This document shows, piece after piece, positions 3,227 through 16,407 of a stretch of DNA of 64,000 nucleotides. The notes beneath the pieces were generated by a model, which saw only the letters and a program-made list of their open reading frames with translations, searched no databases and was not told the origin of the DNA. This stretch comes from Acinetobacter phage EAb13: sequence record OQ717042.1. One strand, 5' to 3'. The position numbers and the translations under genes are program-made. Numbering within the stretch: the stretch's first letter is position 1; each line of letters opens with the position of its first letter.

Positions 3227-4801
3227 ATGCAACTGTATGAGAAACAAATTAAAACTTTCCAGAAAGCCTACATGAACAAACGTTTTCTGGACCGCAGCCA
3301 TGCAGGTTCAGGAAAAACGGCACCGATCTGTTGCCTGACTGGTTTTTTGATTGGCTCAAAACCAGTTGACATTCATCCTAGTAAAACTATTAACCAGATT
3401 CCTTTAAGCCTGACTCAAGGCACCCACTCAATTACTCAGGTAACTGGTGGAAAGTACAATTGCCGTGCCATTTGGATTCAGCCAAGTTCTTTGATGGAAA
3501 AGAACCGTGAAGAACTCTTGGCATGGAACCCAACATGGCAACCACACCACGTTAAGGTAATCACTGGGACTGCAGCTAAGAAAAAGAAACTGGCACTTGA
3601 TGAAGATACATTGGTGTGGGTTATGACTGCAGAAGCTTTCAAGTCTTATTACCTAGACATGAAAGCAAAGTTCCCAGATATATTCCAAATTGTATGTGAT
3701 GAACCTCACTTATACTACCGTGGCTTTAGCAGTGCCCGTACCCAGTTCTTTGTCAATAACTTGGAACCACATGCACGTCTGCACTTCATGACAGCAACAC
3801 CAACACCACGTGGCAAGTTAAGCTCAGCGTATATTTACTGTCATATGATTCAGCGTGATTACTATGGCTGTTATGATTGGTTCATTAACACCCATGCCGA
3901 TCTTGATGAATATGGTAATCCTCAGAACTGGAAAAACCATGGCAAGCTGTGGGCATTCTTGGACAACTACTCAATCTGCTGGACCAGCAAAGATATGTAT
4001 GGCGACATTGACGAAATTATTATCCGTGATGTAGTCAAACTAAATCCACCGATTGAGAGTGTTTATCGTGACTTTGAATTGGGTGGTATTGCTGACCTGC
4101 AGGGTTCGGTTCTATCAGCTACAAGTGGCGGTGTTGAAAGCCTACGTTGTCGCCAAATTCTATGCCACCCACATGCTATTCGTATTCCATGTGCTTGGGG
4201 TGATGATGGTAAGCCAACAGAGTATTCAACTGGTAAAGTGTTTGATGAAATTACACCAAAATTAGAACGAATTGTAGAGTATGCAGAAGCTGGTGAACCA
4301 TTGATTATCTTTGGCTCATTCACTGCAGAAATTGAAATGATTGCTGACACGTTACGTCGTAGAAAAGTACGTGTCGGTGTGATTCACGGTGGGGTTATGC
4401 AACTCCAACGTGTAAAAATAGACCAAGACTTCCAAGCGGGTAAATTGGATGTTGTGGTCTGTTCGGCAGCAACAGCTGGCGTTGGCTTCAACTGGGGCCA
4501 TGTCAACACAGTAATTTTCCATTCTCTTAACTATGGTGATGATGAGTTCTTGCAAGCAATTGCCCGTGCTAAACGTGGTGTGCGTACAGAACTACTTAAA
4601 ATCATTTTATTAGAATATGAAAACACTATTGATCAACCAGTCATGTGGGCAGTTCATCACAACTCACGTAACAGCCATTTGACTAATCCTGACAACCCAA
4701 TTATTTACTTCCCACGTGTGGTACAGGACGATCATAATTCGACCTTAACACCTCAAATGGGAATCGAATATAAGGAGAACGGAGAAAAAATGATCGTATA
4801 G
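3227..4801 (+). CDS. SF2 (DEAD/DEAH-like) DNA helicase
   Basis: Walker A AGSGKTA, motif II VCDEPH, motif VI QAIARAKRG; 524 aa. Confidence 0.8.
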   Translation: MQLYEKQIKTFQKAYMNKRFLDRSHAGSGKTAPICCLTGFLIGSKPVDIHPSKTINQIPLSLTQGTHSITQVTGGKYNCRAIWIQPSSLMEKNREELLAWNPTWQPHHVKVITGTAAKKKKLALDEDTLVWVMTAEAFKSYYLDMKAKFPDIFQIVCDEPHLYYRGFSSARTQFFVNNLEPHARLHFMTATPTPRGKLSSAYIYCHMIQRDYYGCYDWFINTHADLDEYGNPQNWKNHGKLWAFLDNYSICWTSKDMYGDIDEIIIRDVVKLNPPIESVYRDFELGGIADLQGSVLSATSGGVESLRCRQILCHPHAIRIPCAWGDDGKPTEYSTGKVFDEITPKLERIVEYAEAGEPLIIFGSFTAEIEMIADTLRRRKVRVGVIHGGVMQLQRVKIDQDFQAGKLDVVVCSAATAGVGFNWGHVNTVIFHSLNYGDDEFLQAIARAKRGVRTELLKIILLEYENTIDQPVMWAVHHNSRNSHLTNPDNPIIYFPRVVQDDHNSTLTPQMGIEYKENGEKMIV

Positions 4802-4847
4802 TGAAAATTACTGTTGACTCTAACCAGATTTTGCAATTATATTAAGT

Positions 4848-4890
4848 CATCACCACAGTTTACACCTCGTTTTCTGTGGTGATATTTTTA
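4848..4890 (+). terminator. rho-independent terminator (long-loop hairpin)
   Basis: TCACCACAG ... CTGTGGTGA inverted repeat followed by TATTTTTAT; the ORF-track ATG at 4876 sits in the T-tract. Confidence 0.45.
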
Positions 4891-4935
4891 TGTTTCAAAA
4901 TCACTTTCAAAATCAAAGTCACAGGAAATTTTATC

Positions 4936-5718
4936 ATGACTCAACAAAACGCATTAACAGACGCATTAGCTCAAGCAGCAGAAGCAGCTCAATCTGATTC
5001 AACAGCAACTGCTCAACCTATCTCTCAGGTAGAACAAGGCACAGTTGTTGGAACAAATACACCTGCAGTAGCTAACCATCAAGTTGCTACAGCACCTGCT
5101 GGCGGTCCGTCGCTATCTATGGATAGTAGCGTTGTCCAATCTCAAAGCAGCATCACAGAATTTTTAAAATTAAGTGATGGTGGCTGTATGGTTGGTGAAG
5201 TAAAGTTTGACCCGATCAAAGTTCGCATCCGTCTTGAAGATGCTCAAAACGGTGGTGGTTTTAAACCAGCATACATGATGAACTATGAAGGGCCACAAGG
5301 CATGGTTTACACTAAGTCATATGACGGTGTAACTACTACGAGTAATAACCCAGCACATGGTGGCTTATCATGGGCAGACAATAAAGCTCGTATCTTACAG
5401 ATTGCACCAAAAGCATATGATTTCTTAGGTTATGATATTGCTTTCGTTGTGGCTGAAACAGTGGTTGGTAAAGACAAGAAAACTGAACTTAAAGCAGGTA
5501 CAGTCCTTGGCTTCACTACTCCATACACTGCAGCTAAAATGCTGAAAAAAGTATGGGACTCAGGTATTGGTGCAAACCAACGTGGTAATGATGCAATTCT
5601 TATGATTTCTGGTGAAGAAATTTCTAAGAATGGCCGTCAGTACAAGCAATTGGTAGTTGAGCATGTAGGTTACGCAGCTCCAACTGACCTTGCAGAACCT
5701 GAACATGAAGGTGAGTAA
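4936..5718 (+). CDS. hypothetical protein; Ala/Gln-rich N-terminus plus globular C-terminal domain (possible DNA-binding/SSB-like, speculative)
   Basis: ATG 4936 preceded by AGGA; the track start 4876 lies inside the upstream terminator. Positioned between helicase and flap nuclease. Confidence 0.5.
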   Translation: MTQQNALTDALAQAAEAAQSDSTATAQPISQVEQGTVVGTNTPAVANHQVATAPAGGPSLSMDSSVVQSQSSITEFLKLSDGGCMVGEVKFDPIKVRIRLEDAQNGGGFKPAYMMNYEGPQGMVYTKSYDGVTTTSNNPAHGGLSWADNKARILQIAPKAYDFLGYDIAFVVAETVVGKDKKTELKAGTVLGFTTPYTAAKMLKKVWDSGIGANQRGNDAILMISGEEISKNGRQYKQLVVEHVGYAAPTDLAEPEHEGE

Positions 5719-13310: not shown

Positions 13311-14040
13311 GTCTAAGCAAACACGTGAACATTTTCAGGAATTTCTGAAAGCTAAAGGTTTTTATACTGGAAATATTGATGGCATCATTGGTTTAAGGAC
13401 TAAAAGCGCTATTCTAAATTGCTTCCAGTGTAAAACTGCAACTCCAATTACTGACGTTGAATTATTCCAGTTTGCCAAGCAACTTGGTGATACCAACACA
13501 GTACGCATCCGTACTGTTGCCAAGGTTGAATCAGATGGCTCAGGCTGGTTCAATGATGGTCGCCCAAAAATTTTGTATGAACGTCACAAGTTCTGGAAGT
13601 ATAACGATGATGCCACAGCACCAAAGTCTACGTTCTTTAACTACCCAGATGCTGGTAATTACACCATTGATGCTGATAAAAATGGTGTCAATGACTCATA
13701 CGACAAACTTTTAAAAGCTTGTGAGTATGACCCAATGGGTGCTTTCATGTCAGTCTCAATGGGTGCCTTCCAAGTTATGGGTTTCTATTTCAAGGAAATG
13801 GGCTATGCCACACCTTGGGAAATGCTCTATGACTGTGCCCGTTCTGAAAAAGCCCAGTACCAGTTGCTGGTCAACTACATCGTAATGAATAAATTGCAGA
13901 AAGCTTTCTTGGCTATTTCTGGAAAACCAGACACTTGCCGTATGTTTGCGTCAGGATACAATGGTAAAAATTACGCTAAGTATAATTACCATGGCAACTT
14001 GGCTTCTGCTTATTTATACTATTTGAACAAGGTTAGATAA
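13309..14040 (+). CDS. endolysin: N-terminal peptidoglycan-binding domain plus C-terminal N-acetylmuramidase-like domain
   Basis: FLKAKGFYTGNIDGIIGLRTKSAILNCFQ resembles PG_binding_1; VAKVESDGSGWFNDGRPKILYERHKFW resembles the phage muramidase family motif (kVESgG..F..dgrp.ILFErH). Start uncertain: TTG 13309 after GAGGG, or ATG 13222 overlapping the upstream gene. Confidence 0.65.
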   Translation: MSKQTREHFQEFLKAKGFYTGNIDGIIGLRTKSAILNCFQCKTATPITDVELFQFAKQLGDTNTVRIRTVAKVESDGSGWFNDGRPKILYERHKFWKYNDDATAPKSTFFNYPDAGNYTIDADKNGVNDSYDKLLKACEYDPMGAFMSVSMGAFQVMGFYFKEMGYATPWEMLYDCARSEKAQYQLLVNYIVMNKLQKAFLAISGKPDTCRMFASGYNGKNYAKYNYHGNLASAYLYYLNKVR

Positions 14041-14055
14041 ATGGGCGGTTAAAAT

Positions 14056-14205
14056 ATGAGCAAACGTGAAGTTGCTGTTGTCATCGTCAAAGCCATTATT
14101 TTAGGGACGTTGCGCTATCTTGAGGATAAAGCCAAGGATAAAAAACAACCTAAAAATAAAATTATTTTTAAAGATGGTGTTGACGAAGGAATCGGCCTTG
14201 GCTAA
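14056..14205 (+). CDS. small single-TM protein (49 aa), possible lysis accessory
   Basis: ATG 14056; sequence MSKREVAVVIVKAIILGTLRYLEDKAKDKKQ...; directly downstream of the endolysin. Confidence 0.3.
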   Translation: MSKREVAVVIVKAIILGTLRYLEDKAKDKKQPKNKIIFKDGVDEGIGLG

Positions 14206-14290
14206 TATTGGTTTCAAGACGAGGGGCAGCAGTTAAACAGTAGTTCTAGCTTAGCTTGAAACAACAGTTGTATGCAAAGTCCCAAGTATA

Positions 14291-14315
14291 AAAAACCCCT
14301 TTCGGGGGTTTTTTA
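14291..14315 (+). terminator. rho-independent terminator
   Basis: AAAAACCCC-tttcg-GGGGTTTTTT. Confidence 0.8.
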
Positions 14316-14493
14316 ATCGCTTTAGAAAGCAGTAAATTTTAAAGCTAAATCAATTTATTTTGGATTAGTCTTTTTGATTTCAATATTTAGATACTATTGT
14401 TGCTTTCTAAACGATTAACCAATGTGGCTACGAACTTAGCCAATGAAGTTGAAAGACGGATTGAACAACCCCTTAGTGTTGATGTTCATTTTC

Positions 14494-14569
14494 TGCTATG
14501 TAGCTCAGTAGGTAGAGCAGCGGATTGTTAATCCGTAGGTCATTGGTTCGAGTCCAGTCTTAGCAGCCA
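14494..14569 (+). tRNA. tRNA-Asn (anticodon GTT), CCA encoded
   Basis: Hand-folded cloverleaf: acceptor TGCTATG/CTTAGCA (one mismatch), D-arm GCTC-AGTAGGTA-GAGC, anticodon arm GCGGA-TTGTTAA-TCCGT, variable loop AGGTC, T-arm ATTGG-TTCGAGT-CCAGT, discriminator G, CCA. Confidence 0.85.
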
Positions 14570-14734
14570 TTATGTCTGACATTGTTGGCTTAGCACACTT
14601 GGTTCTGCAGATAACCGCTTAGTGCAAGTAGAGTGGTTCTAACAACAGAATTGTTTTAGAAGTTGATAGTAGCTATAGTAATGCTTGATACAGATAAAAA
14701 CAGTTGGGGTTCGACTCCCTGTGTCAGACCCAAT

Positions 14735-14810
14735 ATTTACGGTTGATAACTTTGGACGATTTTACAACAAAGGTCGCAACTTTGAAGGACACAAGTTATC
14801 AACCGTAAAT
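14735..14810. repeat. 16-bp perfect inverted repeat ATTTACGGTTGATAAC / GTTATCAACCGTAAAT with 44-nt spacer
   Basis: Exact reverse complements at 14735-14750 and 14795-14810; the left arm directly follows a CCCAATATTTA motif that recurs at 14957-14967. Confidence 0.6.
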
Positions 14811-15902
14811 GTTGGAAACAATGTTTATTGGGTTAGCTATCAAACTGATGTGAACGAAAGCGCGTAAGTAGTTTACTGAAAGTTACTGGTGTAGGTAGAT
14901 GTGCTGTGTTACTTCTAGGGTCAAAGGCACATTTTGGTTCGATTCCATAATAACCCACCCAATATTTAGTGAAGCATTCTTGACGAACCGCATGATATGT
15001 AAGGGGTAATGGAGACTGTGATAAGTCTGTGAAGTTACCAGATAAGTTGAAGCGAATGTGGCCCTTTTCAAAGGTTGTGGGCCAAAGCTAAGCTGTCGAT
15101 CAACAGATTTAGCATCAACCAAGGTGTTGCTAGTCACTTCACTGAGAATGCTTCCCTAAATGTTGGATTACTCAGGCAAAGGGTAAACCTCTGTAGACAG
15201 GCCGCAAGGTACAGATAACCTTGGTCGGGGCCGATAAGTTTTTGGGTTATGCAGCTCAAATCCAACATTTCCAAATTTGAGGACTGCCGATTTAACGGTT
15301 GTGCAAGCTCAAAGGGTTATGGAATTACCGCACGACTCTCTTGCAGAGAAGGTATGAACATAAGGGTGTCACCTACCAGCAGGTCAACTAAGTACACGTT
15401 GATTAATCCTAGTGGTGAGATTTCAGGGAACCTAGCTAAGGTTCCTAACAATATTTATGGAAACAAACTCATGACTGTGACCTCTTTGAAAAGATAAACA
15501 GTTGGTTGTTGGTTAGTTTGGGTATGTGAGGTAACCATTCAAGCGGACAACCCCTCCCTCACGATGGTTGAGTTTGGTTCCATAAGTGTTGTAAATGAGA
15601 GAAACAGCCCGTATCCCTGTATGGTTAAGACTGCTTTCAATAGTCTGTGGATTGAAACCTAGCTGGTAACAGCATGAGTCGGATGCCACGCCTTGTATGG
15701 CAACAAACCAGCGAGTGAGTGGAAAGCTCACAACCAACACTTACCATGTTTACTGTCAGACTCAGGACATAAGCGAGGAACATAGCAGAGAAATTGCTCT
15801 AAGAAGTATAAGCCTGCTTGACCGACAAGAATGTTGAGTCAGCACCCCGACCATTAAATTGGTTGGGGTGTTATTTTATCCACGCAATAAAAGGAAATAA
15901 CT

Positions 15903-16193
15903 ATGACCGACGACAATAAAATGTTTGATGGAATGTTCCCAGCCCCTGCAGCAATTTGGGAATCTCAAGGTATCACTGATTCAGAAGTGTACCAGCAAGC
16001 TGCTATGATTTATGCTAAGTTAGTTTCTGTGCCACGCACTTTGCAACATGAACAGCTACTGGAATTAGCATTCCAAGAACAAGGTTATTCTGGTGCAACC
16101 GAAGCATATATTCATGGAGCAGCACAAGCAGCTCTTAAATTGAAAGAATTGGTTGAAAAAGGTCTAGATAAAAATGACGGAAGTAAACCATAA
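15903..16193 (+). CDS. hypothetical protein (96 aa)
   Basis: ATG with AAAGGAAATAACT RBS; first gene after the RNA region. Confidence 0.6.
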   Translation: MTDDNKMFDGMFPAPAAIWESQGITDSEVYQQAAMIYAKLVSVPRTLQHEQLLELAFQEQGYSGATEAYIHGAAQAALKLKELVEKGLDKNDGSKP

Positions 16194-16407
16194 GCAAGAA
16201 GCACAAGAATTTTTTGACAAGCATGGCTATGAAGTTCTAAAGCCATATATGGAATCCACACAGTGCTGGCTAATTTGTTTTTATTATGGTTGGCGCTTCT
16301 GGGATGAGTTAAAAATTATCTATTATCAGTGGGAAAAAGATCATGATATTAGTAATAATTGTGACCGCAATCATGATACTGGCAACATTAATACAAATCT
16401 ACACTAA
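16174..16407 (+). CDS. hypothetical protein (77 aa)
   Basis: ORF overlapping the upstream gene end. Confidence 0.4.
   Translation: MTEVNHKQEAQEFFDKHGYEVLKPYMESTQCWLICFYYGWRFWDELKIIYYQWEKDHDISNNCDRNHDTGNINTNLH

Follow-up and report, generated by a model that had tools for sequence, protein, structure and literature searches.

An inverted repeat in the genome of Acinetobacter phage EAb13 encodes an autonomous 86-nt stem-loop (HP) on the plus-strand RNA of a modular, protein-free operon, the modules of which are gained, lost and reordered between related phages. HP is probably an accessory RNA processing or insulating hairpin, with the spacer shared by the modules of the operon serving as recombination microhomology. 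The genome that hosts this element is that of an Acinetobacter siphophage, and the 64-kb stretch of EAb13 DNA that was analysed (the window) has 90-95% identity to four Acinetobacter phages.

From approximately 14316 to 15880, the window contains no conserved ORF, is bounded by terminators at both limits and carries a tRNA-Asn on the plus strand. This protein-free stretch of ~1.6 kb comprises the tRNA-Asn, two tRNA-like RNAs (TLS1 and TLS2), the hairpin and ~0.9 kb of conserved structured RNA, and its modules follow the order terminator, leader, tRNA-Asn, TLS1, HP, TLS2, RNA-A, RNA-B, terminator. The features are the following:

14290..14315, plus strand: terminator-like palindrome AAAAAACCCCTTTCGGGGGTTTTTT, which closes the upstream lysis genes and forms the left limit of the RNA-only stretch
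14381..14389, plus strand: first copy of CAATATTTA, in the leader, ~105 nt upstream of tRNA-Asn and at the same relative position in all relatives
14494..14569, plus strand: tRNA-Asn (GTT) with encoded CCA (ARAGORN; Rfam tRNA, 69 bits)
14575..14732, plus strand: TLS1, a 158-nt tRNA-like RNA with acceptor, T-arm and CCA
14729..14739, plus strand: first CCCAATATTTA, made of the discriminator C73 and CCA of TLS1 and the trailer ATATTTA
14730..14815, plus strand: HP, an 86-nt RNA hairpin of 23 bp with arms 14730-14752 and 14793-14815
14816..14827, plus strand: spacer AAA plus CAATGTTTA, the right-hand direct repeat of the HP cassette
14829..14961, plus strand: TLS2, a 133-nt tRNA-like RNA with acceptor TGGGTTA/TAACCCA, T-arm, discriminator C and CCA
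14958..14968, plus strand: second CCCAATATTTA, made of the discriminator and CCA of TLS2 and the trailer; single-stranded, and adjoining the long RNA
14969..15457, plus strand: RNA-A, the first half of the conserved ORF-free RNA, ending in the motif copy 15449-15457
15458..15880, plus strand: RNA-B, the second half of the conserved RNA, nearly invariant in five phages

The palindrome at the left limit is invariant in five phages. In Rfam searches of 14000-16300 at E values up to 10, several unrelated sRNA models match it as a terminator hairpin, which are generic hairpin matches and not a sign of family identity, and a simple terminator scan does not list it. At the right limit, RNA-B closes with an intrinsic terminator at 15841-15872 and the T run behind it, and terminator scanning found no other site. 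Comparison of nine ORFs with PHROGs revealed that the stretch is neighboured by an endolysin and a DNA polymerase, which places it at the junction of the lysis and replication modules, and none of these nine ORFs matched a mobility gene, a transposase or an integrase. No sigma-70-like promoter scoring at least 9/12 was found between 14316 and 14494. The best candidate by eye is a weak one, TTGATT-16-TATTGT at 14374-14401, and if it is real the first copy of the 9-mer falls in a promoter spacer and not in RNA.

With Rfam 15 at gathering thresholds, tRNA-Asn is the sole match in the whole window, and at E values up to 10 no tmRNA, GOLLD, ROOL or other true family match beyond tRNA-Asn was obtained in 14000-16300. 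The operon is annotated in none of the four related GenBank records and is not covered by Rfam. In literature searches at the level of titles, abstracts and terms, no account of its RNAs was found in the papers on TCUP2199, Mystique and EAb13 or in surveys of phage structured RNAs.

The first-pass annotation of this DNA had described two 16-mers (14735-14750 and 14795-14810) as exact reverse complements with 44 nt between them, and this is indeed the case. The inverted repeat is, however, longer than first noted, with arms of 23 nt that lie 40 nt apart and are complementary at 22 of 23 positions, the lone exception being a T:G that becomes U.G in plus-strand RNA. It ranks first among the inverted repeats of the window, and a chance origin is unlikely, as had been argued, given that by a hand estimate only ~0.004 perfect 16-nt inverted repeats within 150 nt are expected in 64 kb at 40% GC. 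The stem, which is AT-rich, can be extended to 25 bp with a 1-nt bulge. The RNA of segment 14726-14826 folds with a predicted energy of -38 kcal/mol versus -15.6 ± 3.0 kcal/mol for shuffled sequences (z = -7.4; 0 of 200 shuffles as stable), and HP keeps the same fold in a joint prediction over 511 nt. HP is 86 nt long wherever it is present (six sequences), and its predicted energies there range from -34 to -37 kcal/mol.

The 23-bp core pairs in each of the four distinct, closely related sequences that were available for the analysis of covariation. Two adjacent stem pairs have changed on both sides (C-G/G-C to U-A/A-U), which may be one single event, and the observed covariation score was equalled by 10 of 500 shuffles. 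The departures from pairing in the stem comprise three U.G positions and zero A.C, meaning that full pairing exists only in the plus-strand RNA. In slid-arm controls, the paired fraction falls from 97% to 31-43%. The earlier suggestion of a long RNA stem-loop is therefore borne out as far as structure is concerned, given that HP lies on the transcribed strand of an RNA-only operon, has a constant length, shows compensatory changes and departs from pairing only by U.G.

The 11-mer CCCAATATTTA, which had been reported to recur next to the left arm, does occur twice, although each copy is displaced by one position from the coordinates first given (the actual ones being 14729-14739 and 14958-14968), and both copies directly follow a module of T-arm, acceptor and CCA, as had been observed. 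Rather than being a transposon scar, it joins the last bases of a tRNA-like RNA (discriminator and 3' CCA) to an AU-rich trailer, AUAUUUA. All of the first copy except its first C is also part of the base of the HP left arm. The 9-mer core of this motif, CAATATTTA, has four exact copies in 64 kb versus 1.5 expected, which is an unremarkable count; all four lie on the plus strand within 14381-15457, a one-strand clustering with a probability by chance of ~1e-5 to 1e-6, calculated by hand. A fifth copy with one change, CAATGTTTA, lies at 14819-14827 and reads CAATATTTA in all relatives. Matches with one mismatch fall within 1.1 kb in 6 of 11 cases, two complements (TAAATGTTGG) among them. Every relative has the 9-mer at conserved positions, and each module is closed by CAAUAUUUA as a spacer.

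A role at the level of DNA, with the arms forming a cruciform or palindrome (operator, replication origin or recombination site) and the copies of CAATATTTA acting as iterons, would agree with the location at the lysis/replication junction, just upstream of replication genes, and with the repetition of the 9-mer five times in one orientation; the compensatory change also keeps the DNA palindrome. This role is nonetheless highly improbable, because the spacing of the copies is irregular (350, 88, 141 and 489 nt) where iterons are regular, two of the copies coincide with CCA ends of tRNA-like RNAs, the copies travel with the cassettes, and the three T:G positions, with no A:C, make a palindrome that is imperfect as DNA and intact as plus-strand RNA. 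In addition, the cumulative GC skew has no turn at 14-16 kb, with its maximum near 28-30 kb, and two relatives are without the element. An operator, which was one of the roles initially considered, is at odds with arms of 23 bp that are 40 bp apart and formed partly by a CCA end, with wobbles that fit RNA only, and with a hairpin that is dispensable in two relatives.

Among eight related sequences, the hairpin is present in six and absent from two (Mystique and L206), where the junction reads TLS1-CCAATATTTA followed directly by GTGAAGC. In fJoAci04, L145 and L174, the hairpin lies between two copies of CAATATTTA. TLS2 comes after HP in the window and before it in fJoAci01 and TCUP2199, and in TCUP2199 the tRNA-Asn module is precisely absent. 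The indels are of 88 nt for the hairpin and 141 nt for TLS2, both flanked by the 9-mer. The comparison with related phage genomes, which had been proposed as a check on mobility, thus revealed a presence/absence polymorphism and a differing order relative to TLS2, and not the invariant segment at a fixed place that was to argue against mobility. Given that the hairpin is dispensable in two relatives, it is not essential for the maturation of the neighbouring RNAs.

This polymorphism raises the question of a MITE, with the arms as terminal inverted repeats, a transposase provided in trans and CAATATTTA as a 9-bp target-site duplication. The arms do have the form of terminal inverted repeats (23 nt, 22/23), and the 88-nt presence/absence with a flanking 9-nt direct repeat and the changed position relative to TLS2 are in line with it; small size, inverted arms and presence/absence with a short direct repeat are indeed shared with MITEs, REP elements and palindromic mobile elements in general. 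A MITE is nonetheless very unlikely, since HP is single-copy in the window and confined to one operon boundary, the left "duplication" lies inside the left arm instead of outside it, and the same 9-mer also flanks TLS2 and is present at two further conserved places of the operon, so that the direct repeat is a pre-existing functional motif overlapping an arm. Moreover, no transposase was matched among the nine ORFs around the operon, and the compensatory change and U.G wobbles in the arms indicate selection on RNA pairing. Of the mobile insertion that had been suggested, the presence/absence and the direct repeat stand while the MITE itself falls, and the 11-mer is not a target duplication, being the boundary motif common to the modules and overlapping the left arm.

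No second copy of HP was found in the 64-kb window or in the loci of the relatives, either by searching the 16-mer or with a covariance model of the whole element, and this model gave no match in Mystique, L206, T4 or Ackermannviridae loci. A right-arm 18-mer with two degenerate positions produced 76 matches in GTDB (185,579 species genomes) and 114 in metagenomes, approximately the number estimated by chance for 596 Gb, and no Acinetobacter genome was returned by these scans. When all of the 18-mer loci were compared with the operon, only two matched contigs, those of the related phages L145 and L174, carried the rest of the hairpin. The apical 17-mer gave three matches in IMG/VR, which are limited to 18-19 nt, are about the chance expectation and are not copies of HP (two fall in what seems to be coding sequence, and the third in an ORF-poor stretch that is unrelated), while a 22-mer across the right boundary gave 0 matches in IMG/VR. 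The further copies of the 16-mer that had been sought did not materialise: the window has it only once, and, barring the related phages, the short matches elsewhere lack the rest of the hairpin.

In TLS1, the acceptor stem has 7 bp (TCTGACA/TGTCAGA), the T-arm is canonical (GGGGTTCGACTCCC), the discriminator is C and the CCA is encoded. Two long arms stand in place of the D and anticodon arms, and one of these long arms has the invariant loop CTGCAGA. Among four phages, covariation is seen at 5 of 6 acceptor pairs of TLS1, and compensatory change at 9 of its 41 pairs. The motif G.RYAAGTAG is common to TLS1 and TLS2. Both have the acceptor stem, T-arm and 3' CCA of a tRNA but not its cloverleaf (~75-90 nt, with a D-arm and a 7-nt anticodon loop), given that the modules measure 133-160 nt and have no Rfam tRNA match at E values up to 10. 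TLS1 has no Rfam match of any kind and is not called by ARAGORN, and the "tRNA-Pyl(cta)" called by ARAGORN at 14880-14959 is a partial misreading of TLS2. A reading of these modules as tmRNA, suggested by short frames that end before AAGUAG, was discarded because the frames are not conserved and match no tmRNA model; indeed, tmRNA was found neither by ARAGORN nor by Rfam in 14000-16300. There are short frames with the ends ..NESA-stop and ..YSNA-stop, which as tags are not conserved between relatives. A reading of the CUGCAGA loop as that of a tRNA-Cys or frameshift suppressor was also discarded, because there is no D-arm, the loop has 8 nt on a stem of 4-5 bp and lies ~85 nt away from the T-arm, and C, G or A can stand at the discriminator.

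The left arm of HP is made of the CCA and trailer plus 13 more nucleotides, and the right arm is the complement; since it is built in this way, the hairpin locks the 3' end of the preceding tRNA-like RNA in a duplex of 23-25 bp. In the mechanism that we propose, a single precursor would be made from the whole operon, and RNase P would cut the 5' ends of the tRNA and tRNA-like modules. The single-stranded copies of CAAU↓AUUUA would serve to separate the remaining modules, as they fit the RNase E core RN↓WUU, and the HP duplex would be the sole boundary closed to a single-strand-specific nuclease. HP itself would either be a target of RNase III, which is specific for double strands, or persist uncut, capping the 3' end stably or insulating the tRNA-like RNAs from the large RNA. 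Recombination at the shared 9-mer microhomology would add, delete and reorder modules: given that every module ends in the same 9-mer, recombination there would reshuffle them, which would explain the 88-nt and 141-nt indels.

A double strand of ~20 bp or more is the accepted requirement of RNase III, and HP offers continuous pairing above this limit, with 23 bp in the four distinct sequences and 25 bp when the bulge is included. A processing role is plausible. The motif CAAU↓AUUUA contains AU↓AUU, which agrees in sequence with the RNase E core within an AU-rich segment, and in the 511-nt fold the copy at 14960 is unpaired and that at 14731 is paired within the hairpin. RNase E has this core, RN↓WUU, in AU-rich single-stranded RNA and acts in the processing of tRNA precursors (PMC5222698). 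The specificities used here are those of the enzymes of E. coli and Salmonella, and may not be those of Acinetobacter.

The operon resembles the spacers and 3'ETS of polycistronic tRNA precursors of E. coli and Salmonella (glyW-cysT-leuZ, 3'ETS-leuZ), which are substrates of RNase E and RNase P and also present an AU-rich single strand after an encoded CCA, lie between RNA genes of one transcript and fit the RN↓WUU core (PMC5222698), and from which fragments can be stable RNAs. It differs from them in having an identical 9-mer at every boundary, even between RNAs that are not tRNAs, and in having one copy of it locked in a 23-bp duplex; cleavage here is presumed. The RNase III hairpins of T7 early RNA and the stems of 16S/23S rRNA also have dsRNA of at least two helical turns between polycistronic units. 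T7 sites have an internal loop at the cut and the rRNA stems pair distant sequences, whereas the predicted stem of HP is a local one in which 23 bp pair perfectly and a CCA end takes part.

Lying between two sets of RNA genes, with high stability and alternative pairings in its apical part (CTTTG / CAAAG / CTTTG), HP could also be a transcription terminator or attenuator for read-through from the tRNA-like genes into the large RNA. This is extremely unlikely, given that directly 3' of the stem there is GUUGGAAACAAUG and no U tract, and that a long, AT-rich stem topped by 40 nt is not the make-up of an intrinsic terminator. The terminator scan finds 15841-15872 alone, and what follows HP is TLS2 (in the window) or RNA-A (in the others), so that downstream genes would be silenced.

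The 40-nt apical part contains a small hairpin, CAAAG-GTCGCAA-CTTTG (14768-14784), which is invariant while the flanking apical bases are variable, and a pure processing role does not account for it. The invariance of the CAAAG/CUUUG hairpin and of its GUCGCAA loop would suit a functional RNA product, such as a protein-binding decoy, a sponge or a dsRNA mimic, for example against host defence. HP is, moreover, an optional accessory cassette, and anti-defence or regulatory extras are often optional accessory elements. There is also a precedent in the fragments of tRNA-precursor spacers that act as sRNA sponges, such as 3'ETS-leuZ (PMC5222698). Nonetheless, a product of this kind is possible but rather unlikely, given that the complement of the HP loop is absent from the operon and that of the loop 7-mer, TTGCGAC, occurs only twice in 64 kb versus ~4 expected per strand. 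The complementarities of 10-12 nt between HP and the rest of the window are at the level of chance, except for those to the operon's own motif, and none of the nine neighbouring ORFs stands out as encoding a protein partner. The sub-threshold Rfam matches of HP are to plant microRNA precursor models, and are generic because HP is a long hairpin.

As a tractable system, the locus parallels the stable RNAs C and D of T4. In T4, a tRNA is directly followed by these small stable RNAs (species 1 and 2), which have 119 and 139 nt and had no known roles in a 2010 review (PMC3014915). A canonical T-arm (GGGTTCGAATCCC) is present in one of the T4 RNAs. In EAb13, the two RNAs after tRNA-Asn measure 158 and 133 nt and possess T-arm, acceptor and CCA. 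No sequence similarity between the T4 RNAs and TLS1/TLS2 is apparent from reading them side by side, the acceptor stem of RNA C is less clean than those of TLS1 and TLS2, and T4 lacks a counterpart of the hairpin, of the common boundary 9-mer and of the neighbouring 0.9-kb RNA. A tRNA-like module or tRNA beside a large structured RNA is also found in mascRNA/MALAT1, where the tRNA-like structure defines where a long non-coding RNA ends, and in GOLLD and ROOL, large phage RNAs that lie beside tRNAs, with a phage setting as a further likeness, and since tRNA-like modules adjoin the large RNA, tRNA-maturation enzymes could set the ends of the latter. This locus is set apart from them by matching, tRNA-Asn aside, neither GOLLD, ROOL nor another Rfam family even at E = 10 and by tRNA-like modules that are upstream, not downstream.

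Taken alone, the hairpin is a modest finding, that of a conserved and probably processing-related stem-loop. It marks, nonetheless, an unannotated 1.6-kb protein-free operon in phages of Acinetobacter baumannii that are therapeutic candidates, in which new tRNA-like RNAs (two or three) and structured RNA (~0.9 kb) are built from modules that have a boundary motif in common and are shuffled between close relatives. If the boundary were truly a maturation signal, the ends of all RNAs of the operon would be predictable and the deletion of single cassettes would be easy; natural variants without the hairpin, TLS2 or the tRNA already exist. A bolder proposal, which we regard as unlikely, is that the locus is a phage "RNA cassette array" whose modules (a tRNA, several new tRNA-like RNAs, a hairpin and two large structured RNAs) are each bounded by one 9-nt CAAUAUUUA and swapped, lost and reordered as units among close relatives. 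The boundary would then be a signal dedicated to two tasks, the maturation of the RNAs and the exchange of cassettes. HP would mask the CCA end of the tRNA mimic before it, keeping it as an inactive pro-form until cleavage, and the mimics, in which the anticodon-like CUGCAGA loop is invariant, could act as decoys for host defences that target tRNA.

The large RNA has features of its own. RNA-A contains TAAATGTTGGA (15157-15167), which is identical to the HP right arm and can pair with ATCCAACATTT near 15260. A search with a spaced 18-base pattern for a wider RNA-A family returned one distant relative that was already known and three chance matches. The 5' domain of RNA-A can be aligned in the distant relative L010, where it occupies the syntenic place, and in RNA-B a stretch of 27 nt (15606-15632) is identical to ORF-free DNA beside the tRNA clusters of Ackermannviridae.

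The inverted repeat lies within about 1.6 kb that holds no conserved ORFs, in the genome (about 80 kb) of a siphophage of Acinetobacter baumannii, and this region is 90-95% identical to that of phages fJoAci01, fJoAci04, vB_AbaS_TCUP2199 (TCUP2199) and Mystique. The source contig of the window is also present in a Logan assembly. The ORF-free stretch, hereafter the operon, is preceded by the endolysin gene and a small ORF and followed by small ORFs and then the DNA polymerase gene; a scan of the neighbouring ORFs found no mobility genes near it. All of its recognisable features are on the + strand. In the GenBank records of the four relatives, the tRNA-Asn is the sole annotation in this region, apart from small hypothetical ORFs in Mystique, which are not conserved.

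Features of the ORF-free stretch
14290-14315, terminator-like palindrome, after which the stretch begins
14494-14569, +, tRNA-Asn
14575-14732, +, TLS1, tRNA-like RNA of 158 nt
14730-14815, +, the hairpin formed by the inverted repeat, 86 nt
14829-14961, +, TLS2, tRNA-like RNA of 133 nt
14969-15880, +, highly conserved sequence of about 0.9 kb (the long RNA)
15841-15872, intrinsic terminator, closing the stretch

The 16-nt arms reported by the first-pass annotation are exactly where it had placed them (14735-14750 and 14795-14810), and the repeat is longer than reported: 14730-14752 matches 14793-14815 in 22 of its 23 positions, the remaining one placing T against G. It is clear that the finding is real, and a ranking of inverted repeats places the one at 14730-14815 as the longest and cleanest of the 64-kb window. 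As RNA, the segment folds with -38 kcal/mol, 7.4 SD below shuffled controls, and the hairpin persists unaltered in a joint fold of 511 nt of the operon.

The hairpin is carried by six loci, namely the window, fJoAci01, fJoAci04, TCUP2199 and the metagenome contigs L145 and L174. Each of the six versions measures exactly 86 nt and opens with the CCA that ends the tRNA-like RNA before it, and their predicted stabilities range from -34 to -37 kcal/mol. All four distinct sequences have the 23-bp core paired, and two neighbouring pairs divide them into a group with C-G/G-C and a group with U-A/A-U. All three single-sided stem changes are U.G and none is A.C, indicating that the helix holds only as + strand RNA. 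Moving the partners by 1-3 columns lowers the pairing from 97% to 31-43%. The covariation is drawn from close relatives, the two compensatory pairs may represent one event, and shuffles attained the observed score in 10 of 500 cases. The apical mini-hairpin CAAAG-GUCGCAA-CUUUG is invariant. Of the roles that had been offered for the repeat, the RNA stem-loop is therefore the correct one, given the + strand hairpin with its U.G-only changes and compensatory pairs. An intrinsic terminator is excluded because the stem is not followed by a U tract, and an origin or operator is unlikely, given that the repeats are irregularly spaced and identical with RNA ends, that the stem mismatches are of the RNA type only, and that there is no skew turn.

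In both TLS1 and TLS2, the 5' and 3' ends form a 7-bp acceptor stem adjoining a canonical T-arm, the CCA is encoded and preceded by a discriminator base, and the D and anticodon arms are replaced by long arms. Five of six pairs of the TLS1 acceptor are altered on both sides yet still paired among four phages. TLS1 bears an invariant CUGCAGA loop, and G.RYAAGTAG is common to the two RNAs. Rfam's models of tRNA and tmRNA match neither of them, even with E raised to 10. The 'tRNA-Pyl(cta)' called by ARAGORN at 14880-14959 is a partial misreading that covers the 3' two-thirds of TLS2, with a predicted 5' end that is not paired with the real acceptor strand; this call is open to confusion with an amber suppressor. 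A third tRNA-like type of 200 nt (TLSx), with three G.U pairs in its acceptor, is found in fJoAci04 and the Logan contig L206. The tRNA and tRNA-like modules abut closely, with spacers of only 4-5 nt.

The 11-mer CCCAATATTTA does recur, as the first-pass annotation had noted, at 14729-14739 and 14958-14968, although its placement there was one base off. Both copies consist of the discriminator C and CCA end of a tRNA-like RNA plus the trailer ATATTTA, and the + strand hairpin incorporates the CCA end and trailer of the tRNA-like RNA upstream of it. The 9-nt core, CAATATTTA, has four exact copies in the window, all of them within 14381-15457 of the + strand, and a fifth copy, CAATGTTTA (14819-14827), reads CAATATTTA in every relative. 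If one mismatch is tolerated, the number of copies across the genome is unremarkable (11 found, 8.8 expected), and six of the 11 matches fall within the 1.1 kb of the operon. Two of these six are the complement TAAATGTTGG, one being the hairpin right arm and the other lying at 15157 inside the long RNA. Copies of the motif mark where modules meet: one follows TLS1, one the hairpin and one TLS2 (directly before the long RNA), and another at 15449 divides the long RNA into RNA-A (14969-15457) and RNA-B (15458-15880). This AU-rich boundary motif is confined to the operon, where it accompanies cassette-like variation. Within RNA-A, TAAATGTTGGA (15157-15167, including the TAAATGTTGG copy) has the same sequence as the end of the hairpin right arm and can pair with ATCCAACATTT (15260-15270), about 95 nt downstream; in Mystique, the segment between these strands is mostly deleted. 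Single-stranded CCAAUAUUUA trailers could in principle compete for this pairing.

The comparison with related phage genomes gave a clear outcome: the hairpin is present in some and absent in others, and the order of the modules varies.

Arrangement of modules around the hairpin
Mystique and L206: TLS1-CCAATATTTA joined to GTGAAGC of the long RNA, without the hairpin
fJoAci04, L145 and L174: hairpin at the TLS1/long-RNA junction, as an extra 88 nt between two copies of CAATATTTA
Window: hairpin as in fJoAci04, then TLS2 (141 nt including its trailer), likewise flanked on each side by the 9-mer
fJoAci01 and TCUP2199: TLS2 precedes the hairpin, and the CCA end of TLS2, not TLS1, supplies the left arm

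The module preceding the hairpin varies, with break points at the shared 9-mer, and this cassette variation makes the operon modular. TCUP2199 lacks the tRNA-Asn gene, with a nearly exact gap from first base to CCA (L003, about 1790, versus 14494-14569 in the window) and conserved flanks, and ARAGORN found no tRNA in its locus, so a genuine tRNA, too, can be removed as a module. The contigs L145 (Ga0164292_10147371) and L174 (Ga0164293_10090181), both from JGI metagenomes, start within the TLS1 3' end, where the variable cassette region begins, which suggests assembly breaks from strain-level differences in module content.

The earlier suggestion of a miniature mobile insertion was right about variability, given the differences in presence and order, and fails on mechanism. 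Neither an arm search nor a covariance model of the whole element found a second hairpin copy in the window or the other loci searched, and the supposed left duplication sits within the hairpin arm, with the identical 9-mer also bounding other modules. When 185,579 species genomes, JGI metagenomes and IMG/VR were scanned with patterns, the only matches apart from the two contigs of related phages were short ones at chance level, and no genome of Acinetobacter was among them. Gain as well as loss is accounted for by recombination at the short, identical sequences of the boundaries, with no need of a transposase.

In function, the nearest parallels are the hairpins cut by RNase III in T7 early RNA and in rRNA operons, together with the AU-rich spacers and the external transcribed spacers found in tRNA precursors. 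The closest genomic parallel to the operon is the T4 tRNA cluster, where tRNA-Arg is followed by two stable RNAs, D of 119 nt and C of 139 nt, the latter having a canonical T-arm; their roles are described as unknown (PMC3014915). RNAs C and D, compared with TLS1 and TLS2 by side-by-side reading, showed no sequence similarity to them, and for this reason, together with the lack of an Rfam match, membership of a named family cannot be claimed.

The whole operon would be transcribed as a single precursor, within which RNase P would separate the tRNA and tRNA-like modules, which abut closely. RNase E would act on single-stranded CAAU/AUUUA (slash, cut), in which AU/AUU fits its core motif RN/WUU; this core occurs in AU-rich unstructured RNA, and tRNA precursors are known substrates of the enzyme (PMC5222698). 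In the hairpin, the motif would be double-stranded and therefore shielded from RNase E. RNase III cuts perfect duplexes of this kind in E. coli, T7 and rRNA operons, and the 23-25 bp perfect duplex would be cut by it or, alternatively, would stop 3' exonucleases. On the whole, the hairpin is probably an accessory module for processing or insulation, set between the tRNA-like RNAs and the large RNA, and RNase III can be named as its nuclease only tentatively. That the released hairpin plays a stand-alone role is rather improbable, even with its invariant top, which processing leaves unexplained, and its dispensability in two relatives on the side of such a role. The hairpin is a variant of a familiar kind of element, and its operon is the more interesting object.

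Indels in the long RNA are limited to a few variable stretches, a pattern as expected of a large structured RNA, and 14969-15880 has no Rfam match, GOLLD and ROOL included. The 2-kb bin 14001-16000 has the top GC skew of the window (0.125). RNA-A and RNA-B appear, from the sequence comparisons, to behave independently. In a distant relative (L010, polymerase 71% identical), the RNA-A 5' domain has an alignable counterpart at the syntenic place; BLAST, which also failed to detect this similarity, found no counterpart of RNA-B. The L010 locus (4330-5070, IMGVR_UViG_3300011785_000002) has about 580 ORF-free nt including this counterpart, then tRNA-Asn and tRNA-Thr, without tRNA-like modules or hairpin and in a different module order from the window.

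A 27-nt stretch of RNA-B (15606-15632, CAGCCCGTATCCCTGTATGGTTAAGAC) recurs without a change in 26 phage records, almost all from Ackermannviridae, as well as in two contigs of IMG/VR. In the one record inspected, that of Shigella phage Ag3 (FJ373894.1), its position is L005 2501-2527, within 1.85 kb of unannotated sequence that is free of ORFs and directly precedes the tRNA cluster. In both the window and Ag3, a helix of differing sequence encloses the motif, with GTAAATGAG and GTGGA common nearby, and it looks like an RNA domain common to unrelated phage families. The same Ag3 stretch holds a 67-nt mini tRNA-like module, GGCGAGG...GTGTGGTTCGATTCCACACCCTCGCCA (L005 about 1293-1360), and, about 180 nt downstream, the frame GCAAACGATGATGTAGTTCTGATGGCGGCGTAATAG (1541-1576), which encodes ANDDVVLMAA followed by two stops, typical of a tmRNA tag. 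ARAGORN finds no tmRNA in this stretch, and Rfam weakly matches alpha tmRNA and, with 29.8 bits, permuted tmRNA; module and frame may be an unrecognised phage tmRNA-like gene.
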